In this document: positions 27,462 through 51,004 of the stretch, in pieces | Position numbering within the stretch: position 1 is the first letter of the stretch | How the letters are laid out: every line of letters starts with the position of its first letter | Source of the DNA: Actinomycetota bacterium | GTDB lineage: Bacteria > Actinomycetota > Acidimicrobiia > Acidimicrobiales > JACCXE01 | Reading direction: 5' to 3' | DNA length: 64,000 nucleotides | NCBI GenBank assembly: GCA_041166405.1 | Contig: JBEEFV010000013.1 | Location: 21,927 to 85,926, forward strand | Notes under the pieces: model-generated | The model's input: the letters and a program-made list of their open reading frames with translations, nothing else | The model's database searches: none | What the model was told of the DNA's origin: nothing | Translations under genes and position numbers: made by a program

Positions 27462-28565
27462 CGCGGCGTTCGTCCCGAGCACGCGCGTACGCGCGTCGAC
27501 GGACAACGGCGACAGCGCGGTGACGATCGCGTCGTTGGCGTTGACGTCGGCGTCGATGTGCGGGAAGTCACTGCCCCACAGCACGTGATCGGTGCCGACG
27601 AGCTCAACGACTGACGGAATCGTCTTCTCGTGCGGCTCGGCGACGTACCAGACGTTGTTGCGCAGGTAGTCCGACGGTTTCTGCTTGGTCGCTTCCATGA
27701 CGAGGCCGCCGAGGCGACGGAACTTGTCGTCGAGACGGTCCATCACGAACGGCGCCCACCCGCAGCCGGCTTCGACGCACACCACCTTGAGCGTGGGGTG
27801 ACGGTCGAAGACGCGGTCGAGCACCATCGTCGACAGCGTGGGGATCAGCTGGCCCGGCGCGGTGAGGGCGAAACCGAACAGGAGCCCGGGCATCGTCTCG
27901 GACCACGCCGGATAGGGCACGCCTCCGCCGCCGAAGCGCACGACGACGTGCAAGCACACCGGGACGCCGGCCTCGGCGCAACGCGCCCAGATCGGATCGA
28001 AGGCGGCGTCGCCGGGGCGCATCCCGTTGACGGGTTCGGGCGGGAGGAAGACGCCGCGGAAACCCGCCGCAATGCAGGCGTCCAACTCGCGCGCGGCCTC
28101 GGCGGGATCACCGAAGTTGAGCGACGCGATCGGCAGGATGCGCTGCGGCGCCACGGACGCGAACTCGGCCTGCCAGCGGTTGTAGGCGCGGCAGTACGCC
28201 GACTTGAGCGCCTCGTCTTCCGACGGCACCGGGAGAATGCCGATCGTCGGGAACACGACGCCGGCGGTGATGCCCTGCGCGTCGTACATGGCGACGCGGG
28301 CGTGGGGGTCGTACGACGCCGGAGGGTTGCCGTCCTCGTACTTGTAGCCGCTGGTGAACGCCTCCATCGGGTCGAGGTGCGAACCCCCGAGACCGGCGAG
28401 GCTGCCGGTGAGCACCGGCACGTCGGCGATGACGAGCGACTCGACGCCGTCGTTGGTCTCGATGCGAATGGCGCGATCGCGGAACTCGGCCTCGAGATAC
28501 GTCGTCCACAGATCCCGGGGCTCGAGCACGTGCGAGTCGGCGTCGACGACGACACCGTTCAACAC
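27444..28565 (-). CDS. Amidohydrolase_2 (TIM-barrel metal-dependent hydrolase, ACMSD-like)
   Basis: The GTG at 28565 is preceded by AAAGGTGA. The sequence shows VVDADSHVLEP, and near the C-terminus VLWGSDFPHID. This is the last gene of the overlapping 11-gene unit. Confidence 0.8.
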   Translation of the reverse strand: MLNGVVVDADSHVLEPRDLWTTYLEAEFRDRAIRIETNDGVESLVIADVPVLTGSLAGLGGSHLDPMEAFTSGYKYEDGNPPASYDPHARVAMYDAQGITAGVVFPTIGILPVPSEDEALKSAYCRAYNRWQAEFASVAPQRILPIASLNFGDPAEAARELDACIAAGFRGVFLPPEPVNGMRPGDAAFDPIWARCAEAGVPVCLHVVVRFGGGGVPYPAWSETMPGLLFGFALTAPGQLIPTLSTMVLDRVFDRHPTLKVVCVEAGCGWAPFVMDRLDDKFRRLGGLVMEATKQKPSDYLRNNVWYVAEPHEKTIPSVVELVGTDHVLWGSDFPHIDADVNANDAIVTALSPLSVDARTRVLGTNAASLFGL

Positions 28566-28966
28566 GAGATCACCTTTGGAACCGACGGAGGCCGGCCCGC
28601 GTCGTGTTTGAGGAACTTGTCGACGGCGCGCAGATAACCGAGCATGGCTTTGCGTCCGTCGTACACGCCGGGCGACGTGCAGTCCGTCAGCGTGTACGCG
28701 GTGACGGCGGAGTACGCGGCCGCCTGAAGCATCACCGTGCAACGTGGCGACGCACCGTGGTGCTTGCGGCACGCGGCGCCCGCCAGGCGTAGCTTCGTCG
28801 AGATGTCGGCGACGGTTTGACCGGCGCGGGCGCTCGTGACGAACCGCTTGTTGTCGTTCAGCTTGCCGATGCTGTCGTGGACGGCCGAGGGCTTGTCGCC
28901 GCGCACGATGAGGAACGCACCGGTGGCGAGTACGGCCAGCGCGATCAGCAACGCGACGCGCGTCAC
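28559..28966 (-). CDS. Small membrane-anchored hypothetical protein (4 Cys)
   Basis: The GTG start overlaps the upstream stop (GTGA). The N-terminal TM is MTRVALLIALAVLATGAFLIV. I recognised no family. Confidence 0.55.
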   Translation of the reverse strand: MTRVALLIALAVLATGAFLIVRGDKPSAVHDSIGKLNDNKRFVTSARAGQTVADISTKLRLAGAACRKHHGASPRCTVMLQAAAYSAVTAYTLTDCTSPGVYDGRKAMLGYLRAVDKFLKHDAGRPPSVPKVISC

Positions 28967-29481
28967 TTCAGCAGACCAGCCGACAGCTGGTACTCGAGCA
29001 CGTCTCCGGCGATGTCGTCGGGAGCGACCTTGCCCGCCTTGACCTGCAACACCTCGAACAACTTCGGACCGAACCAGAGATACAGCGTGTGGTCAGCGGC
29101 GCTGCTCGACAGCACCTTCAAGTTGCCGACGTAGATGGTGTCGAAACGCGCGCCCGTCATGACGCCGTCGATGATCTGCTTGCGGTCCGCGGCGCGTGTG
29201 AGGTCGACATCGTTCTTCACCGTGCTCGCCTGCAGGGTGCCCACGAGCGTCTGGCCTTTGCGGATCGCCCACACGCGCCCGTCGGCCACGAGCGACGACG
29301 CTCCCGCTTTGGCAAACCGACCGCGCGCCGGCGCGTACTCCCCCACCGTGATGCCGTCGCCGAGGATCTTCGGCGCGAGTTCGGCCGACACGCGCGCCGG
29401 TGCCGCGATCGGCGCGCTGCCGTTGCCGCACGCGCCGGCGAAAAACGCCAGCGCGAGCACGCCGATCACGAGGCGTCTCAC
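28963..29481 (-). CDS. Hypothetical lipoprotein
   Basis: The GTG at 29481 overlaps the upstream stop (GTGA). The signal and lipobox read VRRLVIGVLALAFFAGAC. I recognised no family. Confidence 0.65.
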   Translation of the reverse strand: MRRLVIGVLALAFFAGACGNGSAPIAAPARVSAELAPKILGDGITVGEYAPARGRFAKAGASSLVADGRVWAIRKGQTLVGTLQASTVKNDVDLTRAADRKQIIDGVMTGARFDTIYVGNLKVLSSSAADHTLYLWFGPKLFEVLQVKAGKVAPDDIAGDVLEYQLSAGLLK

Positions 29482-30506
29482 GGAGTCGCCGCCTCGAGCG
29501 GCTTGATCGAGTCGTAGGTGCTGTCGTAATTCAGCACGATCGCCGTCGTGCCCGCCATGGTCGACGTGTGGATGTGCTGCTGGAGGAACAGGCCGTGCAG
29601 CGTGTCGACGCGGTAGACGTTCGGGTCCTGCGCGTCGGTGTCGGAGCGGAAACCCGTCTGCAGGTTGACGATGTGCTCGTTGGAGATCACTTCGTAGGTG
29701 TCGTACAGGGTGCCGCAGACGTCGACGTTCACTCGGCGGTTCACGCTGCCGCTCACGACCATCGACGTACCGGTCTTCTCGTCGGTCCCAGCCGAGTTCC
29801 ACGTCGTGCCCTCGCCCTGACGCAGCGCCATGATCGTGACCGGCGGGTCCGGCGTGAAATCGAGCGTGCCCGACGCCGACTTGATCACGAGATGCGTGAT
29901 GTCGACCTCGCCTTCGGGCGCACGGTTGCCGGTCGCCGTCTGGGTCACCGTCCCCACGGTCGTCGCCGGCGAGTACGTGACCTTGTAGCTCGTCGTCGTC
30001 CCGCCGTCGAGCGAGGGCACGAAGATGTCGTAGGTGTCGACCTCGGTCAGGCCGTTCACTGGGTCATCGGTCGTCGTGTGCGCGAGGTTCTGGATCTGCA
30101 GCAGGCCGTGCGCGGGCATCGGCAGGGTCGCTTGCGTCGGCGGCGTGCCGATCGTGATCTGCCCCTTGCCGTGGGTCGTGTACGTCCCCGCGGGCGGCGC
30201 GTGGCGAATGAACACGGTCGCGGGCTGCTCGGGTGTGTCGTCGGGCGCGGCGACAGGGCAACCGGGAAGCTTCGGCAGCGTGGGTGCGAGCTTCGGCGCG
30301 ACGAAGCCCGGCGCGAGGAACAACGCCTCGTTGGGCACGACGAACTGCGACGGCGTCGTCGGCAGCGGAATGGTTTCGTCCTTGTACGACAGGTCGAGCG
30401 CCAGCCGTTTGAAACCGATGGTGAAGTCGGGACCGTGGCCCCCACCGCACGCCGTCGCTACGAGCGACAGCGCGATGAGGACGACGCCGAGCGAACGCCG
30501 ACGCAT
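29478..30506 (-). CDS. Hypothetical lipoprotein (Thr/Gly-rich beta-type extracytoplasmic protein)
   Basis: The ATG at 30506 is preceded by GAAGGAGG and overlaps the upstream stop (TGATG). The signal and lipobox read MRRRSLGVVLIALSLVATAC. I recognised no family. Confidence 0.7.
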   Translation of the reverse strand: MRRRSLGVVLIALSLVATACGGGHGPDFTIGFKRLALDLSYKDETIPLPTTPSQFVVPNEALFLAPGFVAPKLAPTLPKLPGCPVAAPDDTPEQPATVFIRHAPPAGTYTTHGKGQITIGTPPTQATLPMPAHGLLQIQNLAHTTTDDPVNGLTEVDTYDIFVPSLDGGTTTSYKVTYSPATTVGTVTQTATGNRAPEGEVDITHLVIKSASGTLDFTPDPPVTIMALRQGEGTTWNSAGTDEKTGTSMVVSGSVNRRVNVDVCGTLYDTYEVISNEHIVNLQTGFRSDTDAQDPNVYRVDTLHGLFLQQHIHTSTMAGTTAIVLNYDSTYDSIKPLEAATP

Positions 30507-32719
30507 CACGGCACCTCCTTCGAATACGGCTGCTGCAGTGACAGTCGGGTCAAGTACGACAGGACGCGGGTCTGCAACGGCTGGGCACGGAACAAGCGGC
30601 GCCGCAGCGAGTCGGCGAGCGAGCGCGCCGCGGCGACGTCGGTCGGCGTCATCTCGTCGCGCAACTCGCCGTACAACGCCTTGGTGACGAGCCACGCGAA
30701 CTCCTCGTGCTCGTCGTCCTCGACGACGTAGTCGAGGAACTCGATGGGCGTGGCATACGGGTCGCCGACGCCGAGGTCGGTGGCAAGGTCGCGCAATTCG
30801 CAGTACTCGACGGCAACCTCCGCGGATGGCCCGCGCTCGCGCGCCCAGCGCTGGCGGCGCGCCCGTCGCAACGACTTCTGCCCGTAGGGCAGAGAGAGCC
30901 GACCGACAGCCACGAGCAGCAGCAGCGGCAGGATCGTGCGGAGGATGTCGCGTATCTGCTGGTACAAGGCGCGATAGCTGCGCACTTTGATCGGTACGTA
31001 GATCTGCACGGCGACGGCGTCGCCCGCTTCGATGTTCTTGTCGAACTTGGCGTCGTCGTTGTTGAGTTCGGCCTTCGCCTTCGGCGGCTGCGTGATGATC
31101 GGGATCCACCCGCGGCCCGCAAAGTTCACTTCGAGCCACTGCGACGCGTTGCGCGGCCGCACAGTGTTGACGCCGCCCTCTTGTTGCGAGCCGTCGAAGC
31201 CGAACCCGATGCGAGACGGCACGCCCGCCCAGCGAGCCAGCATTGCTTGGGCGGCGACAAGTTCGAACGGCGAACCCTCGTGGTTGCCGACGAGGATCGT
31301 CTCGACCTTGTGCGGCGTGACGTCCTTCGGCGTACCGCTGCCCACGGCCACTTCGACGGCCGTCAGTTTCTTCAGGAGAAAGTCGACGCGATGGAACGGA
31401 TCCTCCGGCGCCTGCTCGAGCAACGCCTTCACCGCCGGAGGCGCCTTCGGGATCTTGCGATAGACGGGGTCGAGGTGCGTGCCCGCCGTGGCGTCGAACA
31501 ACTGATCCTGCGTCGGGTAGCTCGGTAGCGACTCGGTGTAGACGAGCCCGCCCGGCACGCGCCCTGACGACACGCGGAAGCTTCCGGCGCGCGGGTCGAA
31601 GACAAGTTTCTGCCCACCGGTGAGCACGATCTTCGTCGGCCCGGTGACGCCCGGCAGGTTCGTGTTGTCACCGAAGTCGCGGATCGTGAACTTGACCGTG
31701 ACGTCGCCGTTGCGCGCCGCGTCGATCACGCCGTCGGGCGGCACCTTCACGAACGACTTCGGGTTGAACGGCGGCAGGCGCCAGGTCTTGCCGTCGTAGT
31801 CGTCGAGCGACCCGACTTTCCACGGGCCCGTGATGGGTCCGTCGACTTCGAACAGCACGCGATCGGCAGCGGCGTTGAGCGGGATCGGCTTCGGCTTCTG
31901 CGCCTTTTGCGCCGGGTCGTACGCCGGCGCCGGGAACAGCACGTTGGTGCTGTTCAGCATCACGATGACCGCGAGGATGCCCGCCAAGTAGACGACGGCC
32001 TTGACGATGCGTCGGACCTCGAACTCGCGCGTGAGCCCGCTCACGCCGCCTTGATCGCCGAAGAGCACGGTCAGCCCGGCGATGACGGGAACGACGGCGA
32101 GAACGCCCGCCAGCGCCTCGCCGCTCTTCGGTTGGCTGATGGCGGTGAGGCCGAGCAGTGGCAGCGGGATGACCAGCGCCAGGCGTGGTCGCTCGAGCGT
32201 CGTCCCCGCAGTACCGGCCGCGAAGCCGAGCAGCACCATCACGACGACGAGGATCGGCCGCCATCCGGCGTCGAAGGGGATGGGCGGACGCAGCGCACGC
32301 CCCGCGTCGATGGCGTCGCGCACGAGCGACGGCAAATGCGACGGGCCGGCGGCGGATCCGATCGTCACGCTGAGGACGGCGAGGCCGAAGGCGACGACCG
32401 GCAGCAGCAGCTGCATCGACTGGCGGCGCCGCGACCGCGCGCACACCCACGACCAACCGATGCCGACGAGTGCGGCCACCACGCACAGCAGGCGTGCGCC
32501 CCACGAACCGAAGATGCCGCCGACGGTGAGCGCGGTCCCGAGCATCGAGAACGCCGCCACGATCAGCGGGCGCAGCGGGACGTCGATCGGCCCCTCGTCC
32601 TCAGGTTCTGGGCGCGCAGAATCCGGGTTTCCGGGATCTGACGCGCCCAGTTCGCCGAGGAGCGTCGTCGTGTCGAGAACGTCGGTCTCTTCGGTCGGTG
32701 GTGTGAGCGTGGTCGCCAT
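30506..32719 (-). CDS. Polytopic transglutaminase-like protein (TgpA-like architecture: N-terminal TM bundle, TGase-like core, extra TM, DUF4129-like tail); the core is apparently non-catalytic
   Basis: The ATG is at 32719 (MATTLTPPTEE). There are about 6 N-terminal TM segments. The core GSPFELVAAQAMLARWAGVPSRIGFGF...SQWLEVNFAGRGWIPIITQP aligns by eye to G.C..FA......LR..GIPAR.V.G...HAW.EV...G.GW..FDPT. It has Pro, Ser and Ile at the Cys, His and Asp positions. Confidence 0.8.
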   Translation of the reverse strand: MATTLTPPTEETDVLDTTTLLGELGASDPGNPDSARPEPEDEGPIDVPLRPLIVAAFSMLGTALTVGGIFGSWGARLLCVVAALVGIGWSWVCARSRRRQSMQLLLPVVAFGLAVLSVTIGSAAGPSHLPSLVRDAIDAGRALRPPIPFDAGWRPILVVVMVLLGFAAGTAGTTLERPRLALVIPLPLLGLTAISQPKSGEALAGVLAVVPVIAGLTVLFGDQGGVSGLTREFEVRRIVKAVVYLAGILAVIVMLNSTNVLFPAPAYDPAQKAQKPKPIPLNAAADRVLFEVDGPITGPWKVGSLDDYDGKTWRLPPFNPKSFVKVPPDGVIDAARNGDVTVKFTIRDFGDNTNLPGVTGPTKIVLTGGQKLVFDPRAGSFRVSSGRVPGGLVYTESLPSYPTQDQLFDATAGTHLDPVYRKIPKAPPAVKALLEQAPEDPFHRVDFLLKKLTAVEVAVGSGTPKDVTPHKVETILVGNHEGSPFELVAAQAMLARWAGVPSRIGFGFDGSQQEGGVNTVRPRNASQWLEVNFAGRGWIPIITQPPKAKAELNNDDAKFDKNIEAGDAVAVQIYVPIKVRSYRALYQQIRDILRTILPLLLLVAVGRLSLPYGQKSLRRARRQRWARERGPSAEVAVEYCELRDLATDLGVGDPYATPIEFLDYVVEDDEHEEFAWLVTKALYGELRDEMTPTDVAAARSLADSLRRRLFRAQPLQTRVLSYLTRLSLQQPYSKEVP

Positions 32720-33945
32720 CAGCCCATCCCCGCGCCGACGGAATGACGGAACGCGACGGCGAGTGGCACGTTCGGGCGGATCTCGACGACCTGTGCCCCG
32801 AGGGCGGACGCGCGCGCCAGGGTCTCGGCCGACTCGTCGCCCCACATGAGCGCGGCGATCAGCACGGACGTGCCGCGCTGCAACACGAGGTCGAGGCGCG
32901 CCGCGCTGGCGGCGTCGAGGCGGGGCGTGACCACGACCAAGTGCGTGTTGGCGCCGCCGCCGTTGTTGATGACGCGCGACAACGCGTCGGCCAGCGGCGC
33001 CTTGACGCGCTCGACGCGCGCCAACGCGTCGAGCATCGGGATCTGCGCCGCCGGGCCGCGCAACGGCACCACGAGGCGGTCAGTCGAACCCTCGAGCAGC
33101 ACTGAGAAGCCGTCGCGCAAGTCGCGAACGCCGACCGACGCCGCCACCTTCACGCCGGCTTCGAACGATCCGCTCACCTCGCCGCGACTGTGGAAGGTGA
33201 CGTCCTGGTCGAGCAGGATCGTGACCTTGTCGGTGATGCCCTGCTCCGCTTCGCGGACGAGCAACTGGCCGGTGCGGGCATACGCGCGCCACACGATGCG
33301 GCGCACGTCGTCGCCGGGCGAGTACTGACGCATCCCGTAGAACTCGAAGCCGCTCGGCCACGGCCGGCTGACGGGCGGGCGGAAGGGCGGGTCCTCGAAC
33401 ATGCGCGTGAGCGGGCGGTCGCTCACCTCTTCCACCATCGGATGCACCAGCACCTCGACGGGTTCGACGAGCGTCATCTCGCGTCGCGTCAAACCGAACG
33501 GGTCGCCGTAGCGAGCCACGAGCGGACCGAGTTCGTACAGACCACGGCGACGGCACGTGAGGTTGTACGTGTGCTCGACGCTCTCGTCCGGCTCGATCAC
33601 GGCGACGGGCAGCGGCGCGGCTTCACCGAGCGCCGGCGGCACGATTTCCTCGACGACGAACGTCGAGACGCGCCGCGGCGCCCGCAGCGTGATTTCCATC
33701 GGCAGGGTTTCACCGACGCGCAGGCGCGGCCGGCTTTCCGATCGCTGCGCCTCGACCGGGATCGGGCGACGGCCGATGACGTAACTGGCGACGAGCAACA
33801 CCACGAGCGTGTAGCTGACGATGTACAGCGGGCGTCCGCCGATGAACCGCGCGATGCCCCACGCCACCACGGCCAAGGCCGCGACGATCAAGCCCGACGA
33901 CGTCAGGCCTGTTCGTTGCGTGACGAGCTCGCGCCAGCGCGTCAT
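32719..33945 (-). CDS. DUF58-domain protein (MoxR-associated, vWA-like)
   Basis: There are two N-terminal TM segments. The DUF58 signature is FEFYGMRQYSPGDDVRRIVWRAYARTGQLLVREAEQ. Start and stop overlap both neighbours. Confidence 0.85.
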   Translation of the reverse strand: MTRWRELVTQRTGLTSSGLIVAALAVVAWGIARFIGGRPLYIVSYTLVVLLVASYVIGRRPIPVEAQRSESRPRLRVGETLPMEITLRAPRRVSTFVVEEIVPPALGEAAPLPVAVIEPDESVEHTYNLTCRRRGLYELGPLVARYGDPFGLTRREMTLVEPVEVLVHPMVEEVSDRPLTRMFEDPPFRPPVSRPWPSGFEFYGMRQYSPGDDVRRIVWRAYARTGQLLVREAEQGITDKVTILLDQDVTFHSRGEVSGSFEAGVKVAASVGVRDLRDGFSVLLEGSTDRLVVPLRGPAAQIPMLDALARVERVKAPLADALSRVINNGGGANTHLVVVTPRLDAASAARLDLVLQRGTSVLIAALMWGDESAETLARASALGAQVVEIRPNVPLAVAFRHSVGAGMG

Positions 33946-34949
33946 TACGAGGCGCGTGCCTTGCGGGCTCGGGTGGTCTTGGCGGGTGCGCCGTTGCTCG
34001 ACGTAACGCCGAGCGGCGGCTTGATCTGGCCGACGACGCGGTCGAGCACGTCGTCGATGGCCTCGCCGCGCAGCACGGCGTCGGGCGTCATCATCATGCG
34101 GTGCGCGAGCACGGGACGCAGCAGCGCCTTGACGTCCTCGGGATAGACGCGGGCGCGCCCGTCGGCCGCGGCCGCGACCTTCGACGCCTTCAACAACGCG
34201 ATCGACGCACGGGGGCCGGCACCGAGTAGCAGCGCCGGGTCCTTGCGGGTCGCCTGCGTGATCTCGAGGATGTAAGTCTCGACGGGATCGCTGACTTCGA
34301 CGTCGCCGGCGAAGTTGATCATCTCGAGGATGTCCTTGGTGCCGATGACGGGCTCGAGGCCTTCGACTTCGAGGTTCTTGGCGTTGCCGCGAATGACCTG
34401 GCGCTCGGCCTCGAGGTCGGGGTAGCCCATCGTCAGCTTGAACAGGAAGCGGTCGAGCTGGGCTTCGGGCAGCGGGAACGTGCCCGCGAGCTCAACGGGG
34501 TTCTGCGTTGCCAGCACCATGAACGGCTTGGGCAGCGGGTGGGTCACGCCGTCGACGGTGACGTTCTTTTCCGCCATGGCTTCGAGCAGCGCCGACTGGG
34601 TCTTTGGGGTGGCGCGGTTGATCTCGTCGACCAGCAACACGTTGGCGAACACCGGCCCCTCGCGGAACACGAACTTCATCGACTTCGTGTCGATGATCGA
34701 GCTACCGGTGATGTCGCCGGGCAGCATGTCGGGTGTGCACTGCACACGCGACGTGTCGGCCCGGATCGACTGGCTGATGGCACGGGCGAGCATCGACTTA
34801 CCGACGCCGGGCACGTCCTCGAACAGGATGTGGCCACCGGCGCAGATGGCGGTCATCGACATGCGCACCACGTCGTCCTTGCCGTGGATGACGGTGTTGA
34901 TGTTGTCGACGATCTTGTTGAAGACGGTCGAGAATTGTGTGGCGTTCAT
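33945..34949 (-). CDS. MoxR-family AAA+ ATPase
   Basis: The sequence shows VIHGKDDVVRMSMTAICAGGHILFEDVPGVGKSMLARAI (Walker A) and VLLVDEINRATPKTQSALLEAMAE (Walker B/sensor). It also shows FMVLATQNP and the C-terminal AAA lid region. Confidence 0.95.
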   Translation of the reverse strand: MNATQFSTVFNKIVDNINTVIHGKDDVVRMSMTAICAGGHILFEDVPGVGKSMLARAISQSIRADTSRVQCTPDMLPGDITGSSIIDTKSMKFVFREGPVFANVLLVDEINRATPKTQSALLEAMAEKNVTVDGVTHPLPKPFMVLATQNPVELAGTFPLPEAQLDRFLFKLTMGYPDLEAERQVIRGNAKNLEVEGLEPVIGTKDILEMINFAGDVEVSDPVETYILEITQATRKDPALLLGAGPRASIALLKASKVAAAADGRARVYPEDVKALLRPVLAHRMMMTPDAVLRGEAIDDVLDRVVGQIKPPLGVTSSNGAPAKTTRARKARAS

Positions 34950-37891
34950 GAGATTCCTCCAGAACGATTGATGGCTTCTTCGCTCGTACCGAGGTACGAC
35001 GCGACGACTTGTGGGTGTTCGAGTACGGCGCTCGCTTCGCCGCGGGTAACGACGGCGCCGAGTTCGAGGGCGAGCAGTTCGTCCGACACGGCTTGGATCA
35101 GCGGCATGTCGTGCTCGATGACGAGCAACGAGCAGCCCGTCTCGTAGCGGATGCGGCTGAGCAGCGGGCCCAGCTCCTCGGCTTCCTTCTGCGCGATGCC
35201 GGACGACGGTTCGTCGAGCAGGAGTACCTGCGGCTCGGCCGCCATGACGCAGGCCATGTCGACGATGCGGCGTTGACCGGTCGACAGCTCGCGGACGAAC
35301 TTGTCGCGTGCGACTCCGAGGGCGAACAGCTCGATCAGACGGTCGACGCGTTCGCTGACCTTCGCCTCGGCGCGGCGCACGTTCGGCAGGCGCAGCGCGC
35401 CGGCGGCGACGCTGCGCACTTCGAGGTGACGCTCGAGCGCGATGGCGATGTTTTCCTTCACCGTCAGCGACGGGAACAGGCGCGCGTCCTGGAACGAGCG
35501 CAGCAGCCCGTGGTTGACGCGCTGGTCGGGCGTCAGGTCGGTGATGTCTTCGCCGAGCAATTCGATCGTGCCTGCGGTCGGCGGCACGAAGCCCGAGATG
35601 ATGTCGAAGAGCGTGGTCTTGCCCGCCCCGTTCGGACCGATGATCCCGAGCGCCGTGCCCTGGTCGAGGGTGAAGCTGACGTCGTTGACGGCGCGGATGC
35701 CGCCGAAGTGCACGCTCACGTTTCGCACGTCGAGCGCTTTCGCGGCGTGCGCGTCGACCGCCGCGGTCTCGTACGTGCGCACGGCGATACGGCCTCGGCC
35801 CACGCCGGATCCCTTGAGGTACACCGAGCGCAGGATGTCGGGCCGGCGCAGCAACTCGGCGGTCGAGCCCGTGAACTTCACTTCGCCCTTCTCCATGAAC
35901 ACGGCACGCTTGGCAAGCGTCAGCGCGACGTTGACCGACTGCTCGACCAGGATGATCGTCGTGCCCTGCGCGGCGATGGCGCGCACGATCTCGAGAAGTT
36001 GCTCGACCACGACGGGCGCGAGACCGAGCGACAGCTCGTCGATGATCAACAGCCGAGGCCGCGCCAGGAACGCTTGGGCGAGCGTGAGCATCTGCTGCTC
36101 ACCGCCCGACAGGTTCGACGCGTCGTCACCGGACCGCTCACGCAGGATCGGGAAGTAACCGAACACGACCTCGTGGTCCACGGGCTCGTCGCCGTCGCGC
36201 CGCGCGAACGACGCCATCTTGAGGTTCTCGGCAACGGTGAGGCCGCCGAAGACGCCCTTGCCTCCGGGCACGACGGAGATGCCGCGCGTGACGTGTTCGT
36301 GCGGCGGCAGATACGTGATGTCCTCGCCGTCGTAGAAGATGGCGCCGTTGCTTGGAGCGGTGATCCCGCCGATGGCGCGCAGCAACGTCGACTTGCCGGC
36401 GCCGTTCGTCCCGAGCAGCGCCACGATCTCGCCCTCGTCGACTTCGAAGTCGACGTTGAACAGCACCTGCCCGGTCCCGTACTTCACGTCGACGTCACGG
36501 CACACCAGCAACTTCGCCTGGCCGCTCGCCTTGGCGTCGCGCGACACCTGCGCCGCCATGGCGGCGGCGAGCGCGGCGCGGATGTCGGCCTCGACGCTGG
36601 CGCCACCCGACATGAGGATGAAGGCACCGATCAGGAAGATCGGTGTGAGCACGAGAATGCCGCCGCGCAAACCGAAGTGGTCACCGATTGCACCGGCGAT
36701 CGCGAAGATCACGTAGCCGGGCACGATCGCCAGTACGCCGATCGCCAACGCCAGGCCGCGCACGCGCGCGGGGATCACGACGGTGATCAGCGCCTGCGTG
36801 GCGGGGCCGAGGACGTAGGCCGTGAACGAGAAGACGCAAGCGAACAACACCGCCATCGGCAGCACCGGCGAGATAGCGACGAGCGCGCACGACAGGCCCG
36901 ACACCACGGCCATGCCGCCGGCGTAGGAGATGACGCGTCCCGGTCGCTCCGACATCAAGCGCGATGCGATCGACGAACTGACGAGCAGGCCGAGCATGGC
37001 CGCGCCCTGGCTGAGCCCGACGATGACGCCGCGGCCGCCAGGCCCGACGTGGAACACGTCGTCGAAGAACAGCGAGAACAGCGTCAGGATCGCCAGGCCG
37101 GGGCCGACGAGGAACGGGAGGGCGTACAGAATGCGCCGCAGCGTGCGGACGTTCCAGGCGACGCGGAACGCCTCGCCCACCGACGGCGGTCGCTCCTCCA
37201 CGAGCGCGTCCTCTTCGCTCGCACCTTGCAGGCGACGCTCCCACGCGCCGCGTACGGGCTCACGCAGACGCGCCGCGGCAACAGCGAGGATGATCGCCGG
37301 GACCGCGAGCACGATGAACACGAGTTGCCACGGCGCGAACGACGCGATGAACCCCGCCAGCACCGGGCCGAGCGCGCCGCCGGCGAGCATCGCGAACTGG
37401 CGGTACGCGAACACACTGGCGCGGGCGTCCGGCGGGTAGTAGTCGGCGAGTAGCGACGAGTGCGCAGGCGCGAATGCTTGGCCGGCGCCCGAGCCGACGC
37501 GCATCAAGGTGAACAACAGCAGCGTCGGCGCCAAGCCCGTGAAGATCCCGAACACGCCGATGGCAAGCGCGCCCACGGCGGTCAGGCGCGTGCGCGACCA
37601 GCGGTCCGACGCGATGCCCATCGGCACCGCGAGGACCAGTGTCAGGACACCGGTCAGCGCGACGAGGAACGTGACGCGGGTGACGTCGAGGCCGAAGTAG
37701 TCGCGGATCTCGGGCGTGAGCACGCCGAGCGCGCCCTTGTCCATCTCGTCGATGAGCACGATGGCGAACAGCACGACCATCGGCAACAGCGGCAAGCCTG
37801 CGAATTGCGCCAGCGCCCGCCGCATCTGGTTTCGGCTCTGGCCTGGTTCCGGTACGGAATCGAGACCAGTTCGCTCGAGGAGGTCGGTCAT
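34946..37891 (-). CDS. Triple-fusion protein: 12-TM MFS domain + LivF-like ABC ATPase + LivG-like ABC ATPase
   Basis: The ATG at 37891 has GGAGG 5 nt upstream. The MFS part spans approximately 36600-37800 and carries the motif A-like GIASDRWSRTRL. NBD1 spans approximately 35815-36511 (GTNGAGKSTLL, LSGGEQQML, LLIIDELSLGLAP, ...RSVYL). NBD2 spans approximately 34949-35737 (FGGIRAVNDVSF, GPNGAGKTTLF, LSTGQRRIV, LLLDEPSSG, VVASYLG). Confidence 0.85.
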   Translation of the reverse strand: MTDLLERTGLDSVPEPGQSRNQMRRALAQFAGLPLLPMVVLFAIVLIDEMDKGALGVLTPEIRDYFGLDVTRVTFLVALTGVLTLVLAVPMGIASDRWSRTRLTAVGALAIGVFGIFTGLAPTLLLFTLMRVGSGAGQAFAPAHSSLLADYYPPDARASVFAYRQFAMLAGGALGPVLAGFIASFAPWQLVFIVLAVPAIILAVAAARLREPVRGAWERRLQGASEEDALVEERPPSVGEAFRVAWNVRTLRRILYALPFLVGPGLAILTLFSLFFDDVFHVGPGGRGVIVGLSQGAAMLGLLVSSSIASRLMSERPGRVISYAGGMAVVSGLSCALVAISPVLPMAVLFACVFSFTAYVLGPATQALITVVIPARVRGLALAIGVLAIVPGYVIFAIAGAIGDHFGLRGGILVLTPIFLIGAFILMSGGASVEADIRAALAAAMAAQVSRDAKASGQAKLLVCRDVDVKYGTGQVLFNVDFEVDEGEIVALLGTNGAGKSTLLRAIGGITAPSNGAIFYDGEDITYLPPHEHVTRGISVVPGGKGVFGGLTVAENLKMASFARRDGDEPVDHEVVFGYFPILRERSGDDASNLSGGEQQMLTLAQAFLARPRLLIIDELSLGLAPVVVEQLLEIVRAIAAQGTTIILVEQSVNVALTLAKRAVFMEKGEVKFTGSTAELLRRPDILRSVYLKGSGVGRGRIAVRTYETAAVDAHAAKALDVRNVSVHFGGIRAVNDVSFTLDQGTALGIIGPNGAGKTTLFDIISGFVPPTAGTIELLGEDITDLTPDQRVNHGLLRSFQDARLFPSLTVKENIAIALERHLEVRSVAAGALRLPNVRRAEAKVSERVDRLIELFALGVARDKFVRELSTGQRRIVDMACVMAAEPQVLLLDEPSSGIAQKEAEELGPLLSRIRYETGCSLLVIEHDMPLIQAVSDELLALELGAVVTRGEASAVLEHPQVVASYLGTSEEAINRSGGIS

Positions 37892-40074
37892 CAGTACCTC
37901 CACCCAGGGCCGGACTGGCTGGCGCCGGTCGTGCGGATACGAGACGGCTGGCGGTAGTTGGCGCCGACGGGTTCCGGGTCGGCTTTCGGCGTGAGCGGCG
38001 CGCGGTCGACGACGCCCGCGGCGGCGGCGTAATCGGTCAGCAGGCTCGGCACCCAGATGCGGCGACGGATGGCGATACGACGCAGCACCGCATCACGCGC
38101 CGCGTACGCCATCGACCCGAGACCGCCCGGGAACGCGTACAGCACGATCAGCACGCCGAAGGCGCTCGCGAACAGGCGCCCGATGTCGCCGTGGATCGTG
38201 AAGTTGACGATGGCGAAATACAGCGCGCCGAGCAGCGCGCCCTGCACAGAACCGAGCCCGCCGATGACGGCGGTGAGAAAGATCTGCACGCTCGCTTCGG
38301 GGCCGAACGACTGGGCGTCGAGCGCGTGCTCGTGCGCCACGAACAAGACGCCGGCGGCCGACGCCATGAAGCCCGAGAGCGCGAACGTGAGCAGGCGCGT
38401 GCGCACGAGGTTGACGCCGTAGGACTGCGCGGCGCGTTCGTTGTCGCGCATGGCGATGAGCACGCGGCCCGTGCGCGACTTGCGCAGACCCGTTGCCGCG
38501 AACACGGCAAGCGCTAAACCGACCAGACACACGTAGTAGTACGCGCGGTTGTCGTCGGTCTTGATGAAGAGCATCACTGGGCGGCTGACGCTGCGCGGGG
38601 CGTACTTCCCGAGGTGCGACTGGTCGAGGATGATCGTGTTCGTGACGATGGCGAACGCCAGCGTCGTGACCGCGAGGTACAGCCCTCGAATGCGCAGCGC
38701 CGTGAGACCGAGAATCATCGCCACGACGGCGCCGGCGGACGCACCGGCGAACAGCGCGATCAGGAACGGCAGGTGCAGCTTCCCGATGCAGATACCGCCG
38801 ATGAGCGCACCGACACCGACGAGCGCGTACTGCCCAAGGCTCACTTGACCGCCCCAACCCGTCAGCATCACGAGGCTGATCACGACGATCCCGTCGATGA
38901 GCACGAGGCTGCCGAGGTTCACCTGGCTCGGCGACATCACCAACGGGAACGCGAGGACGACGACGACGAGGAGCCCGACGAACCGGCGCACACCCGTCTT
39001 CACGATGTTGAGGTTGGCCAACTCGGTGGGTATGGGCCTGACCTCTTCGGTCGCCGACCACGTCGAACTCGACGACTCGTCGGTGCGGCCCAGTCGCTTC
39101 CGCTGCACCAAGAAGCCGACGAGGATGACACCGAGCAGTACCGCGTTCACGACGGCGCTGTCGTGGTAGTGGTAGGACGACGCGTCGACGACGAACGAGA
39201 TGCCGACCGAGGCCGCGATCGTGAGCGGAAGGCTGTCCATGCCGGCGACGACACCGGCGGCCAACGCGATCAGCAGCGACACGCCAATGGTCGACGTCGC
39301 TGCATTGGGGCTGTAGCCGTAGATCGGGATCTGCAGCGCGGCGGCCAAGCCGGCCAGGAGTCCCGCGATCGTCCACACGATCGTCGACAGCGACCGCACG
39401 TTCACACCGAGCTCGCTCGCACGATCGCTGTTCTGCGCCGCGCCGCGCACCGCCACGCCGAGCTTCGTGTAGCGCAAGAACGCGCCGAGCCCGAGCAGCG
39501 CGGCGGACGCCAACACGAGCAACATCGCCCAGTCACCGCGGAACAGCGAGCCGCCCCAGTGGAACTTGGAGTTGAACAGCGGCGAGCGGAAGAACACCAC
39601 CGGGTCGTCCTTGTGGCCGATCCAACCGGGGAAGGCGCCCGAGATGCCGCCGAGCAATTGCGCGACGCCGAGCGTGACCACCGCCAGGATCAACCGCGCC
39701 GAGCGGAAGAACCGGCGGACGAACATCAGCTCGACCAACGCGCCTGCTGCACCCGCGGCCAGCACCGCCGCCGGCAGTGCGATCCAGTACGAGACGTCGA
39801 GCGACGCGGCGAGCCCGTAGAACAGGACGTAGGCGACGGCGAAGAATCCGCCGTGCGCGAAGTTGATGACGCGACTGGCGCGGTACACGAGAACCAGGCC
39901 GACGGCGAACAGCGCGTCGAGCAGCCCGACGGCTACGGACGTGAACAGGAGCGGCCACATGCGGCCGCGCGCGATAGGCGTGTGCTGGTGGATGATCGAG
40001 AGCGCCTCGACCGTCGCCAGCAGCACCAGCGCGAGCGCGACCGCCCCACCGCGCCGGAGCGCGTTCGAGTTCAC
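37891..40074 (-). CDS. Fused LivH-LivM-type branched-chain-amino-acid-family ABC permease
   Basis: The GTG at 40074 overlaps the upstream stop (GTGA). The first half is LivH-like (VLVYRASRVINFAHGGFFAV...RGAAQNSDRASELGVNV). The second half is LivM-like (LTGWGGQVSLGQYALVGVGA...GRVLIAMRDNERAAQSYGVN). The upstream 414 codons of the 1141-aa track ORF are read-through of another frame. Confidence 0.85.
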   Translation of the reverse strand: MNSNALRRGGAVALALVLLATVEALSIIHQHTPIARGRMWPLLFTSVAVGLLDALFAVGLVLVYRASRVINFAHGGFFAVAYVLFYGLAASLDVSYWIALPAAVLAAGAAGALVELMFVRRFFRSARLILAVVTLGVAQLLGGISGAFPGWIGHKDDPVVFFRSPLFNSKFHWGGSLFRGDWAMLLVLASAALLGLGAFLRYTKLGVAVRGAAQNSDRASELGVNVRSLSTIVWTIAGLLAGLAAALQIPIYGYSPNAATSTIGVSLLIALAAGVVAGMDSLPLTIAASVGISFVVDASSYHYHDSAVVNAVLLGVILVGFLVQRKRLGRTDESSSSTWSATEEVRPIPTELANLNIVKTGVRRFVGLLVVVVLAFPLVMSPSQVNLGSLVLIDGIVVISLVMLTGWGGQVSLGQYALVGVGALIGGICIGKLHLPFLIALFAGASAGAVVAMILGLTALRIRGLYLAVTTLAFAIVTNTIILDQSHLGKYAPRSVSRPVMLFIKTDDNRAYYYVCLVGLALAVFAATGLRKSRTGRVLIAMRDNERAAQSYGVNLVRTRLLTFALSGFMASAAGVLFVAHEHALDAQSFGPEASVQIFLTAVIGGLGSVQGALLGALYFAIVNFTIHGDIGRLFASAFGVLIVLYAFPGGLGSMAYAARDAVLRRIAIRRRIWVPSLLTDYAAAAGVVDRAPLTPKADPEPVGANYRQPSRIRTTGASQSGPGWRY

Positions 40075-41117
40075 TGGCCCGTCACCGTCGTCACGAGTTC
40101 GCCCAACGTGTGCACGCGCACGGTGCCGCGCCGGCCGGGCTTCTTGATAACGACAGCATTTGGCGCAGGCGCCAAGTCGAGGCTGAGCGTGAGGTCGCCG
40201 CGATCGATGCTCGTCAGTTGCTGGCGCAGCTTCACTTCGAAGCGTTTCAAGTCGCCGTGCGTGTCGAGCCAGAACTTGGCTGGGAAGACGCGGCGGGTGA
40301 CCGCATTGGCTTTGAACTCTTTGTCGAGCACTTTGCGCGCGTGTTCGCTCAGGCCCCGCTCCGCTTTGTCGCGGCTGACATTGGCGTCGTAGCGCACGAG
40401 GCTCTCGCGCTCGGCGCCGCGCCGTTCGATGCTGCCGGTCAGCACACCCTTGGTGAGGCGCAACAGGTCGACGGGATTGACGGCGATGCTGCCGGCGTGC
40501 TTGGTCTTGTCGTGATCGGCGATGCCCGCGTAGTCGAACGCCGCCCATTCGCGCACGATCTGCACGCGGCGGCGCAGCAACGACGGTGCGGCCGTGGTGC
40601 TGGTCGTCGTGGTCGTCGGCAGCGTGAAGTTCGGTGATGCGATCGACGAACTCGTCGTGGCGCCGGTCGTCGCTGGCTCGGGCGCGGGCACGAGCTGGCT
40701 GCTGTACTCCGCGGCGAGTGCGTTGAAGTTGCTGGGCACACTCGCCGTGAGACGGTTGCCGGCGACCTGCACCGACTTCGCCGCGATGCGCTGGTAGATC
40801 GCGCCACCGGCGAACAAGATCGCCGGTTTCCCGCTGGGAGTGTTCGTGCCGACTTCTGCCGTCCGCGCGGGAGCGTTGATCACGACGCCGATCTCGTTGA
40901 CATGCTCCGGCGCGATGCGCGCCGGGCCCGGAGCGATCGGCTTGTCGGACTTCACGATTTGCACGCGCGCTTCGAGGACACCGGTGACCGACGGTGCCTT
41001 CAGCAAACGCTCGCCGGCGTGGACGATGCGCGTCGCTTGCGCGTCGCGCTCGCCGAGCCCGCACGCGCCACTCACGACGGCGACCACCAACACCAGGCCG
41101 ATGCACGTGCGGGTCAT
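40071..41117 (-). CDS. Hypothetical two-domain lipoprotein embedded in the ABC transporter gene set
   Basis: The ATG overlaps the SBP stop (ATGA). The signal and lipobox read MTRTCIGLVLVVAVVSGAC. A Thr/Ser/Pro-rich linker (PAPEPATTGATTSSSIASPNFTLPTTTTTSTTAAPS) sits between two halves. I recognised no family. Confidence 0.7.
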   Translation of the reverse strand: MTRTCIGLVLVVAVVSGACGLGERDAQATRIVHAGERLLKAPSVTGVLEARVQIVKSDKPIAPGPARIAPEHVNEIGVVINAPARTAEVGTNTPSGKPAILFAGGAIYQRIAAKSVQVAGNRLTASVPSNFNALAAEYSSQLVPAPEPATTGATTSSSIASPNFTLPTTTTTSTTAAPSLLRRRVQIVREWAAFDYAGIADHDKTKHAGSIAVNPVDLLRLTKGVLTGSIERRGAERESLVRYDANVSRDKAERGLSEHARKVLDKEFKANAVTRRVFPAKFWLDTHGDLKRFEVKLRQQLTSIDRGDLTLSLDLAPAPNAVVIKKPGRRGTVRVHTLGELVTTVTGQ

Positions 41118-42775
41118 ACCGGCGCCAGCGAGATGCTCGACGGTTTGTTGTCGAAGACGTCAGGGTCTTCGGAGGGCCACTGGTCGTACGTGTAGCGCTG
41201 CCCGCCGCGCACCCAGCGGTACGTGCCCTTCTGACCGTCCGAACCCATGGCGTTGCGGTCCCACCAGATCTCGGCGGCCCAGTCGGGGTACGTGTGGTCG
41301 TTGATGTCGTACCCACCGGCCATGTGCCACGGCGGGTTCGGCGACAGCTTCGGCTGCTTGACGAGCGCCGACTTCAGCGATTCCGCACTGAGTTTCGGTC
41401 CGGCGTTCTGCATGGCGCCGAACAGCTGCACCATGTCGCCCCACATGTACGTGCACATGCCGCTATCGGGGTCGTTGCTCGGGTCGATCTCGTGGTACGC
41501 CTTGTAGCACTCGGTCTCTTCGTCGGGCTTCGGGATCTCGTAGAGCGAGAAGCCGAACGCGTGGCTCCACTCGTCCTGGTCGTAGTCACGCGCGATGTGC
41601 CCCGTGTCGACGCCACCGAAGCCGGGGATGAACCACTCGGGGAAGTAGTTGTCGGACTTTGCGATCTGCGTGAAGGGCACGGCGCTGATGAGGTCGCCGA
41701 GATAGAAGATCGTTGTGACCTGCGCGGTCTGCATGGTGCCGATGGCCGACGCCAGCCCCTGGACGTTGTCCTTGGCGAGGTCGTACGTCACCACGGGGTC
41801 GATGTCGACGTTGCACTCGGACTTGAGCAGCGCCTTGATGGTCGGGCCCGGGTTGTCGTAGGCCGGCAGGTTGTAGACGATGGCGCCGACCTTGCGCACC
41901 TTCTTGAGCGACAGTGTCGGATCGTCGGTGAACTTCGGCGGCTTGCCGGCGAGCTTCTTGCAGTAGTACTCGGCGCCGAGACGGATGTCCTGGCTGCCCG
42001 ACGGCGTGAAACTCCAGAGGTACGGGTCGTGATCGGCGAACCACTTCTCCGGGGTCTGCGCCTGCGTGAAGTGCAGGATGCCGCGCTTGGCGAGTTCGTC
42101 CGACGCCGCGGGGTTCGTCTCCTGCACGGCGGCGAAGCAGTGATCGGTGTCCTTCGCCTTGTCGGCCCGCGCGCGCGCCTGCGCGTCGTCCTGCTTCGAG
42201 TTGTCGTTCGTCGGATAGAAGAAGTGCAGCTGCCGCCCGTAGAACTGGTAGCGCGAGTTGAAGTAGTCGCGCAGCACTTTGTAGGTGCGCATGTTCGCCG
42301 AGTCGTTCGGCGCGACCGGGCCCTTCATCTCGCCGTCGCTGCTGACGGTGCCCGTCAACTCCGCGAGGTAACAGACGTTGATCGAGTCCGCGGTGACGCC
42401 GAACGCCGTCGCCCCACCGTTGTCGCCGGTGAAGGCCGGCGCGCACGGCGGCGAGTAGATCGACTCGATCTGGCGCGGCGGGTCACCGAAGCCGTACGGG
42501 CATGCCGACGACCTCTTGTTCTTCTTCGGCGGGATCGTCGTGGTCGGTTCGGGCTCGACGCCCGCGGCGGTGCCGCTGCGCGCCGAGTTGAACGACGAGA
42601 ACACCGACGGCTGGTTCTTGTCGGGCGGGGCATCGGGCGAGAACGCGCTCGACGTCTGGGGCTGGTCCTGCGGCGGCCGCAGCACGGACGGCAGGATCAT
42701 CAACCCGAGGATGAGCGCGAGCGCACCGGCCAGCGCGGGCGCCAGCCGATCACTGCGCTTCGGACCGCGCCCCAC
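41114..42775 (-). CDS. Membrane-anchored ABC substrate-binding protein (divergent type-1 periplasmic-binding fold, LivK-like)
   Basis: The start is GTG. The N-terminal anchor is LAPALAGALALILGLMILPSVL, followed by a low-complexity linker. The body is about 440 aa with an alternating beta-alpha pattern and conserved Cys pairs. The position immediately upstream of the Liv-type permease and ATPases supports the call. The fold assignment is inferred. Confidence 0.65.
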   Translation of the reverse strand: MGRGPKRSDRLAPALAGALALILGLMILPSVLRPPQDQPQTSSAFSPDAPPDKNQPSVFSSFNSARSGTAAGVEPEPTTTIPPKKNKRSSACPYGFGDPPRQIESIYSPPCAPAFTGDNGGATAFGVTADSINVCYLAELTGTVSSDGEMKGPVAPNDSANMRTYKVLRDYFNSRYQFYGRQLHFFYPTNDNSKQDDAQARARADKAKDTDHCFAAVQETNPAASDELAKRGILHFTQAQTPEKWFADHDPYLWSFTPSGSQDIRLGAEYYCKKLAGKPPKFTDDPTLSLKKVRKVGAIVYNLPAYDNPGPTIKALLKSECNVDIDPVVTYDLAKDNVQGLASAIGTMQTAQVTTIFYLGDLISAVPFTQIAKSDNYFPEWFIPGFGGVDTGHIARDYDQDEWSHAFGFSLYEIPKPDEETECYKAYHEIDPSNDPDSGMCTYMWGDMVQLFGAMQNAGPKLSAESLKSALVKQPKLSPNPPWHMAGGYDINDHTYPDWAAEIWWDRNAMGSDGQKGTYRWVRGGQRYTYDQWPSEDPDVFDNKPSSISLAPV

Positions 42776-49070: not shown

Positions 49071-49123
49071 CCGAACTGGGCGCGTCAGATCACGTTTTCC
49101 GGGACCTGACGCGCCCAGTTCGT
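49071..49123. terminator. Hairpin element, copy B (perfect 16-bp stem 49073-49088/49106-49121, 17-nt loop) between convergent genes
   Basis: The sequence is CCGAACTGGGCGCGTCAG-atcacgttttccgggac-CTGACGCGCCCAGTTCG. It begins 13 nt after the TetR stop and abuts the esterase stop codon (49123-49125). Confidence 0.6.
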
Positions 49124-50897: not shown

Positions 50898-51004
50898 GGC
50901 TCCTCCGAAGAGAGGCCCAGGCGGTCGGCCAATCCTTAGACGCTTCCCGGCGGTGAGACCCACCCTCTGCCCGCCAGTCGCAAGTGGCAATAGTCTCCCA
51001 CGCC

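Follow-up and report, generated by a model that had tools for sequence, protein, structure and literature searches.

A complete MFS transporter joined in one chain to both ATPases of a Liv/Urt-type ABC importer in Acidimicrobiia

No transporter superfamilies are larger than the major facilitator superfamily (MFS), made up of secondary transporters, and the ATP-binding cassette (ABC) superfamily of primary transporters, and in textbooks their mechanisms are presented as separate. How, then, can one gene encode a complete MFS domain together with two ABC ATPases, and what might the MFS domain do there? The question is raised by a gene on the minus strand of a 64,000-nt stretch of the Actinomycetota contig JBEEFV010000013.1, here called the window, to which all position numbers refer. 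The gene (34946..37891; G+C of the locus about 68%) encodes a 981-residue protein in which an MFS domain is followed by a LivF-like and a LivG-like nucleotide-binding domain (NBD). The fusion is authentic and of ancient origin, and the protein is a subunit of a HAAT-type (Liv/Urt) ABC importer that works with a binding protein. As to the MFS domain, the reading that we prefer, and hold with middling confidence on the strength of conserved residues and a predicted structure, is that it would be an integrated third membrane module that supplies a second and related route across the membrane, in step with the cycle of the ATPases.

The first step is to establish the extent of the gene. A single open frame, free of internal stops, extends over 34946..37903 on the minus strand and gives 985 residues when counted, as in the list of open reading frames (ORFs), from the GTG that lies furthest upstream. 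Translation is more likely to begin at the ATG at 37891, which has a GGAGG about 8 nt upstream and gives 981 residues; the stop codon is at 34946–34948. The ATG shares 1 nt with the stop codon of the preceding LivH-LivM (LivHM) gene (TGATG). The database protein P0001, also of 981 residues, is 100% identical to the fusion, and the JGI gene call agrees. The automatic names are “MFS transporter” at NCBI and “branched-chain amino acid transport ATP-binding protein” or “.../MFS family permease” at JGI. That is, the fusion is already in the databases, yet it is uncharacterised; a full-text literature search found no paper on an MFS-LivF/LivG fusion.

The domain layout of the protein is as follows. 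The MFS core, residues 33–430 (36602..37795), has 12 transmembrane (TM) helices and matches Pfam MFS_1 with 127.7 bits (cutoff 33.4; E 6e-37). A helical “stalk” after TM12, residues 431–459 (36515..36601), leads to NBD1, residues 460–688 (35828..36514), which is separated by a flexible linker, residues 689–715 (35747..35827), from NBD2, residues 716–981 (34949..35746). Pfam ABC_tran matches twice (E 2.5e-62). The nearest NCBIfam models are UrtE/LivF for residues 468–684 and LivG/UrtD for residues 722–973. The UrtE model (TIGR03410) scores 321.8 bits, above its cutoff of 285.8; the LivF (NF008626), LivG (NF008449) and UrtD (TIGR03411) models match strongly, yet stay under their equivalog cutoffs. 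Because every NCBIfam equivalog except UrtE is below cutoff, a substrate cannot be transferred from the Liv/Urt systems. An AlphaFold2 (AF2) model built on a 40-sequence alignment has a predicted local distance difference test (pLDDT) score of 80.4 and a predicted template modelling (pTM) score of 0.63, with pLDDT 80–94 in the MFS helices.

A preliminary description, made from the letters of this DNA, had read the gene in the same way. Its uninterrupted polypeptide, with no stop or frameshift at the domain boundaries, is the single ORF that P0001 matches. Its complete 12-TM MFS, as opposed to an unrelated polytopic domain, is upheld by the profile match and by the AF2 model, and the motif that it singled out, GIASDRWSRTRL at residues 92–103, is MFS motif A. 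Its domain coordinates agree with ours to within a few bases, with the MFS at nt 36602–37795, NBD1 from about residue 460 (nt 36514) and NBD2 beginning at about residues 716–719 (nt 35737–35746). It had also placed the LivF-like NBD ahead of the LivG-like NBD, the reverse of livGF. The NCBIfam placement gives this order, and since the G-like domain precedes the F-like one in the proteobacterial loci of the same scan (L064-L070), the order in the fusion is indeed reversed.

How widespread is this architecture? A word-indexed search for full-length homologues in JGI, ENA, NCBI and Logan assemblies gave at least 120 proteins of 50–100% identity with the same MFS plus two-ABC make-up. A scan of one genome per species found about 60 loci with the complete fusion, at 41–80% identity, in metagenome-assembled genomes (MAGs) of Acidimicrobiia/Actinomycetota and in three Candidatus Dormibacteria, plus one Burkholderiales-binned contig, the taxonomic labels being those of the MAG depositors. 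Thus, the survey of databases and taxa that the preliminary description had called for shows the architecture recurring in Acidimicrobiia and Candidatus Dormibacteria. An exhaustive HMMER search with the MFS domain alone produced 213 clusters at 50% identity (E<=1e-30), and a metagenome scan seeded with stand-alone relatives of the MFS domain found 80 loci, 61 of them MFS-F-G fusions. At least three fusion paralogues occur in each of CAVRKD01, CAZCSK01 and DATLFP01, and in JAHWKU01 two copies lie 16 kb from each other. The gene is real, as is its architecture, and it belongs to an ancient, multi-paralogue family. The Burkholderiales-binned contig (L026; CAZCVW010000166.1, “uncultured Burkholderiales”) is a 7.3-kb fusion contig whose label probably reflects a mistake in binning and not the presence of the fusion in Proteobacteria.

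What sort of MFS transporter is it? Twelve confident TM helices are seen in the AF2 model between residue 36 and about residue 430. Those of the N-lobe span residues 36–66, 70–97, 100–120, 124–151, 154–185 and 188–207; those of the C-lobe follow the central loop at 249–280, 284–315, 318–340, 344–372, 375 to about 400, and about 401 to 430. Motif A, whose general form is GxxxDRxGR[RK], lies between TM2 and TM3, reading GIASDRWSRTR at residues 92–102 (G92-IAS-D96-R97-WS-R100), and its D96, R97 and R100 are invariant in all of the 60 fusions compared. A second motif, DYYPPxxR, occupies residues 150–157. Although the mean identity of the MFS domain among these fusions is only 34%, the residues D96/R97/R100, D150/Y152/R157 and R378 are 98–100% conserved. 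The closest solved structures are HnSpns (6e8j; E 6e-9, N-lobe only) and DgoT (6e9o; E 2e-8), and the TIGR00893 score is 79 bits against a cutoff of 395. The domain stays far under every subfamily cutoff, and we treat it as separate from both ACS and Spns. By its sequence, the MFS domain forms a subfamily of its own, nearest to the Spns and ACS families.

The residues of the MFS domain that are conserved family-wide sit almost wholly on the cytoplasmic face. They comprise motif A, D150-Y-Y-P..R157, R378, a charged central loop and, in the stalk, D436 and R438. The central loop, residues 214–252 between TM6 and TM7, is 39 residues long in 58 of the 60 fusions and has the family-wide consensus LREPxRGxxERR..G..EE..E.PPS..E..R...RT.RR. 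It is cytoplasmic and is unusually well ordered in the AF2 model (pLDDT 79–92).

The connection between the MFS domain and the first ATPase is also strongly constrained. In the AF2 model, TM12 carries on as a single helix, residues 390–455, straight into the first strand of NBD1 at residue 460. From D436 to the Walker A glycine G494 of NBD1 there are exactly 59 residues in 58/60 fusions, and the stalk residues D436 and R438 are invariant or nearly so. The spacer between the two NBDs behaves differently: measured from R683 to G730, it ranges over 43–58 residues or more between homologues, and its residues 689–713 are disordered (pLDDT <50). Pairwise identities across the 60 fusions are correlated between the MFS domain and NBD1 (Spearman 0.75) and between the MFS domain and NBD2 (0.63), a pattern that is predicted by one old fusion followed by co-divergence.

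The ATPase domains carry canonical motifs. NBD1 has Walker A GTNGAGKST, signature LSGGEQQ, Walker B IDE with D618-E619, and a LivF-type VEQS switch (E650-Q651). NBD2 has Walker A GPNGAGKTT, Q801, signature LSTGQ, Walker B LDE with D893-E894, and H927 as the H-switch. The Walker A, Q-loop, signature and Walker B glutamate are at least 95% conserved at both ATP sites, and by these residues both sites look competent. The closest solved relative of NBD1 is 1ji0 (E 3e-51). The best Foldseek matches to the fusion are single-chain tandem NBDs, those of Mycobacterium tuberculosis DppD and OppD plus an archaeal A2 component (TMt 0.54–0.62, E 1e-23 to 1e-26). DppD and OppD are similar to the fusion in fold and domain arrangement and belong to a different ABC subfamily.

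Do these ATPases have an importer to energise? The fusion gene lies in an operon, a minus-strand run of overlapping or abutting genes that extends from a binding-protein gene, p553, to a set of small secreted proteins and lipoproteins. Directly upstream of the fusion, at 37891..40074, is a fused LivH-LivM (UrtB-UrtC-like) permease of 727 residues with two ABC transmembrane domains (BPD_transp_2 twice, E 7e-59; the JGI call agrees), the UrtB/LivH-like half at residues 26–308 and the UrtC/LivM-like half at residues 350–637 according to NCBIfam. The preliminary description had named this neighbour and had concluded that the complex would hold three membrane modules, as the two BPD_transp_2 matches confirm. 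In tblastn searches, LivHM stands immediately upstream of the fusion in every genome and metagenome locus that includes that DNA. A sequence search of the Protein Data Bank (PDB) with LivHM detected no solved homologue.

The binding protein is encoded by p553 (41114..42775, minus strand). Its N-terminal TM helix, residues 14–32, precedes a disordered linker rich in Pro. Pfam has no match for the protein itself, and a direct PDB sequence search gave nothing useful. Its homologues, its family profile and its AF2 model identify it as a divergent LivJ-type (Peripla_BP_6) protein of the type-I periplasmic binding protein (PBP) fold, as follows. PF13458 (Peripla_BP_6) matches 24/32 p553 homologues; the family profile matches the Leu/Ile/Val-binding protein 8wch (E 1.3e-4); and the AF2 model (pLDDT 85, pTM 0.80) aligns with a TM-score of about 0.7 to LivJ (4gnr) and to aromatic-acid binding proteins (4ey3, 4evs). 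The Foldseek neighbours bind amino acids, aromatic acids, urea and fatty acids. A p553 homologue is found by tblastn close to the fusion in most loci, and two to three p553 paralogues are present in each of L007, L018, L044, L046 and L053. Just past the TM anchor, residues 28–51 contain a near-invariant juxtamembrane motif, LPSxLRPP...SPDAPPD, ahead of the disordered linker; a partner in the membrane may dock there.

Since p553 is a LivJ-fold binding protein beside LivHM and the NBDs, the importer is complete without the MFS domain. That is, the classical importer parts (LivHM, LivF/LivG and p553) are all present, and the MFS domain is an extra, third membrane module. LivHM, the fusion and p553 are the core module. 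Between LivHM and p553 lies the gene for a predicted lipoprotein of 348 residues (40071..41117, minus strand; lipobox VSGAC; no Pfam match). Its C-terminal half is kept upstream of LivHM in the window's clade, and tblastn finds homologues in 11 loci, including a 203-residue protein of L082.

Two longer open frames in this region were set aside. A 1141-residue ORF extending LivHM (37891..41316, minus strand) is an artefact of open frames in high-GC DNA: its first approximately 400 residues are Arg/Pro/Thr-rich nonsense that overlies the lipoprotein and p553 genes in other frames, and the true start of LivHM is at 40074. A giant LivH-LivM-MFS-F-G polypeptide, suggested by open frames in several metagenome loci, is rejected as well, LivHM always being in the +1 frame with an overlapping stop and start.

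Are the domains ever found apart? They are. In L063 (9302-14823), MFS-LivF is one ORF and is followed by a single LivH-LivM-LivG ORF. This split implies a position of LivG beside the C-terminus of LivM and of MFS-LivF on the LivH side. Proteins of about 680–720 residues with natural C-termini consist of MFS-LivF only. In L055 (7599-11599, Candidatus Dormibacterota), LivHM precedes a LivF-LivG fusion of 553 residues without an MFS domain; it follows that the F-G fusion can exist independently of the MFS. In all variants, when the MFS domain is fused it is joined to LivF.

Stand-alone MFS proteins of the same subfamily also occur. They are 450–480 residues long and have motif A, DYYP..R, the charged 39-residue loop and a short C-terminal “xDI” helix (loci L087, L089, L118, L127, L134, L156, L157 and L161; proteins P0257, P0264, P0273, P0274 and P0292). 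Their genes are in unrelated contexts and not beside ABC genes, and the subfamily can evidently function alone. The contexts of L127 (GGDEF, ADH and CitMHS neighbours) and L118, where the neighbours of the two loci also include LysR, were uninformative as substrate hints. Because these stand-alone proteins have both the central loop and the beginning of the stalk, these elements are hallmarks of the subfamily and are not proof of an interface with an NBD; the loop had been considered as such proof and is weakened accordingly.

What, then, might the MFS domain do? By family precedent, the LivF and LivG NBDs would form the usual heterodimer beneath LivH-LivM, and ATP hydrolysis there would drive uptake of the solute delivered by p553. 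Members of the type-I binding-protein fold class bind amino acids, urea, amides and aromatic acids. The anatomy of the MFS domain suggests that it would still be a conformationally active transporter, not a dead anchor, and that the stalk would hold it at a defined geometry beside the LivF NBD. It is likely to be conformationally competent because its switch motifs are invariant at an overall identity of 34% and because stand-alone relatives exist. We propose that it gives a second, chemically related route, whether for uptake at low affinity or for the efflux of a product or counter-solute, and that its cycle may be coordinated with that of the ATPase via the stalk and the conserved cytoplasmic face. 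The view that it is integrated, and not loosely tethered, is favoured because the connector is a single helix of fixed length in 58/60 fusions, because the domains have co-diverged and because the split variants always keep the MFS with LivF.

Several observations weigh against this proposal. The role of the MFS domain is one that we infer, contact between it and the NBDs is putative, and the model has a pTM of only 0.63. As L055 illustrates, the MFS is evidently dispensable for the ABC part, and the central loop and the start of the stalk are shared with the stand-alone relatives. Across the 60 fusions, no universal mid-membrane residue was found; this would fit diversified substrates and, equally, loss of a defined binding site.

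The alternative that fares best, which we consider possible though clearly less probable than an integrated module, is a loose fusion of the Rosetta-stone kind. Here the MFS domain would work on its own as a proton-coupled carrier of a metabolite from the same pathway, the tether would serve co-expression, co-localisation and a 1:1 stoichiometry, and there would be no conformational cross-talk between MFS and ATPase. The stand-alone members in unrelated gene contexts agree with such autonomy, as do the classical MFS switch motifs, which are all intact, and ABC systems of the clade that work without the MFS (L055). A passive tether, however, should allow its length to vary, whereas the connector is predicted to be one unbroken helix, its length is invariant, and D436 and R438 are invariant or nearly so; the true flexible linker, that between NBD1 and NBD2, does vary in length.

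The genes downstream of the fusion bear on a second alternative. The ATG of a MoxR-type AAA+ ATPase gene (33945..34949; AAA_3, E 9e-61, plus AAA_lid_2), with GGAGGA upstream, overlaps the TGA of the fusion (ATGA). It is followed on the same strand by a DUF58 gene (32719..33945; PF01882), the usual MoxR partner and a conserved neighbour here, and by a gene for a TgpA-like membrane protein of transglutaminase fold (30506..32719; TgpA_N plus Transglut_core; JGI gene call). About 40 genome loci have this triad beside the LivHM-fusion pair, with the genes in either of two orders; on the 4.1-Mb contig of L082 it stands between the fusion gene and the binding-protein gene. Adjacency is consistent in the window's clade and in a sister clade. 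In the metagenome loci, where the order is LivHM, fusion and binding protein, the triad was found within 6 kb in 0/80. The triad was therefore rejected as an obligatory partner in general, and it is a clade-specific and possibly functional addition. MoxR-DUF58-transglutaminase triads are described in the bifidobacterial PFNA cluster and the mycobacterial moxR1 operon, without a Liv-type or MFS transporter (PMC12067865, PMC8430577). The same three genes are here translationally coupled to the transporter fusion.

Could the MFS domain, then, be a device that does not transport at all? As a sensor or regulator (“transceptor”) or a membrane scaffold, it might gate the ATPase, position the TM-anchored binding protein or recruit TgpA, DUF58 and MoxR. 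Its conservation lies on the cytoplasmic face with no universal cavity residue, its geometry relative to NBD1 is fixed, and the membrane proteins DUF58 and TgpA are tightly linked to the operon in the window's clade; all of this suits a sensor or scaffold. On the other hand, motif A and its counterpart in the C-lobe show the conservation seen in functioning transporters, the stand-alone relatives are presumably transporters, and a triad that is missing within 6 kb of the fusion in every one of the 80 metagenome loci cannot serve as its partner in general. We regard a non-transporting MFS domain as unlikely, more so than the loose fusion.

A more unusual mechanism would have the ABC ATPase drive or gate the MFS domain mechanically, with ATP-dependent closure of the LivF/LivG dimer passed on through a rigid TM12 stalk of fixed length, in a manner likened to the TM6-NBD link of ABC exporters. 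In our judgement, this is rather improbable. If true, the MFS would be ATP-powered, or dual-energised by ATP and the proton-motive force (pmf), sharing one motor with a classical permease, and one ATPase would drive two translocation pathways from two superfamilies. Lastly, that an assembly chimera, a frameshift or a pseudogene has joined separate MFS, livF and livG genes, an idea considered only since the window is a single metagenomic assembly and for which no support was found, is extremely improbable, because several projects have yielded the same uninterrupted architecture, in more than 200 independent assemblies and at identities as low as about 41%, with conserved junction sequence and length, and with a Shine-Dalgarno-ATG start and overlapping stop/start codons typical of a real operon; the worry about an assembly-made fusion voiced in the preliminary description is thereby dispelled.

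Returning to the integrated importer, how does it compare with known systems? The E. coli LivJ/K-LivHMGF and the cyanobacterial/corynebacterial UrtABCDE systems (HAAT, TC 3.A.1.4) have the same transmembrane-domain family (BPD_transp_2), the same type of NBD pair (LivF/UrtE plus LivG/UrtD), including the LivF-type VEQ switch, and a binding protein of the same type-I PBP (Peripla_BP_6) fold as p553. In contrast to those systems, LivH and LivM are fused here, LivF and LivG are fused in reversed order, and a whole MFS is N-terminal to LivF. Moreover, p553 is about 150 residues longer, is TM-anchored and is too divergent for a Pfam match of its own. Thus, the components of a HAAT system (NBDs, two BPD_transp_2 domains and a binding protein) are all found, and the canonical subunit organisation is not.

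For the tandem arrangement of the ATPases, the best structural matches to the C-terminal 520 residues of the fusion are M. tuberculosis OppD (Rv1281c) and DppD (PDB 8j5q, 8wdb), which likewise have two NBDs in one chain, serve a binding-protein-dependent importer and come from an actinobacterium. Because they are the top Foldseek matches, a one-chain NBD pair for an importer has an actinobacterial precedent. They differ from the fusion in being of another ABC family (peptide/Opp type), in lacking an MFS domain and in having only about 22–26% identity. For the MFS domain, HnSpns (6e8j) and DgoT (6e9o) share the 12-TM fold and motif A, with weak similarity, and DYYPPxxRA at the TM4-TM5 turn is common to HnSpns and the fusion. 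The charged 39-residue central loop and the post-TM12 stalk, in contrast, are specific to the fusion's MFS subfamily, and we know of no Spns or ACS protein that carries NBDs. The classical example of a secondary carrier that can also associate with an ATPase of two homologous nucleotide-binding halves is the ArsA-ArsB arsenite pump. ArsB, however, lies outside the MFS, ArsA does not belong to the ABC ATPases and the two are separate polypeptides; the NBDs of the fusion, unlike ArsA, already have an ABC permease of their own.

The remaining genes of the operon follow TgpA on the minus strand. Gene calls place three small secreted proteins or lipoproteins at 28559..30506, of 342 residues (29478-30506), 168 residues (28963-29469) and 135 residues (28559-28966); a Pfam search with the 342- and 168-residue proteins gave no match, and none of the three could be assigned to a family. 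Together with the 348-residue lipoprotein, they are kept within the window's clade (tblastn), and three of the four carry lipobox-like signals. In L082, the homologue of the 342-residue protein is the C-terminal part of an 1100-residue TgpA; in the sister clade, a homologue occupies the gap of about 1.2 kb between TgpA and LivHM. A scan of the operon for promoters and terminators was uninformative, with 0 promoter-like sites and with terminator-like sites that did not exceed the shuffled background. Beyond what the preliminary description contained, the operon has its own divergent LivJ-type binding protein, the fusion gene is translationally coupled to MoxR-DUF58-TgpA, and the fusion is not a one-off but a member of a large, old, multi-paralogue family with split and stand-alone variants.

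Elsewhere in the window, a ZMP/ZTP riboswitch (RF01750; 50908-50991, minus strand) scores 49 bits, the gathering score being 39. The genes downstream of it encode a class-I SAM-dependent methyltransferase (about 50139-50900) and, at 49123-50142, an esterase of the PHB-depolymerase type; these are not the usual purine/folate gene set for a ZTP riboswitch.

What does the fusion mean for these bacteria? A complete MFS transporter joined covalently and, by the predicted stalk, rigidly to an ABC motor is a hybrid of the two main transporter classes, and automatic annotation conceals this architecture. The fusion is old, is under purifying selection and is present in several paralogues per genome in abundant soil and freshwater Acidimicrobiia. 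The link to a transporter also gives a new handle on the widespread MoxR-DUF58-TgpA triad. If the modules communicate, the family would be a natural system for cross-talk between pmf- and ATP-driven transport and a template from which hybrid transporters might be engineered. Were the fusion no more than a stoichiometric tether, it would still predict a functional partnership of this MFS subfamily with a divergent Liv-type importer, a prediction that can be transferred to genomes in which the genes are separate.

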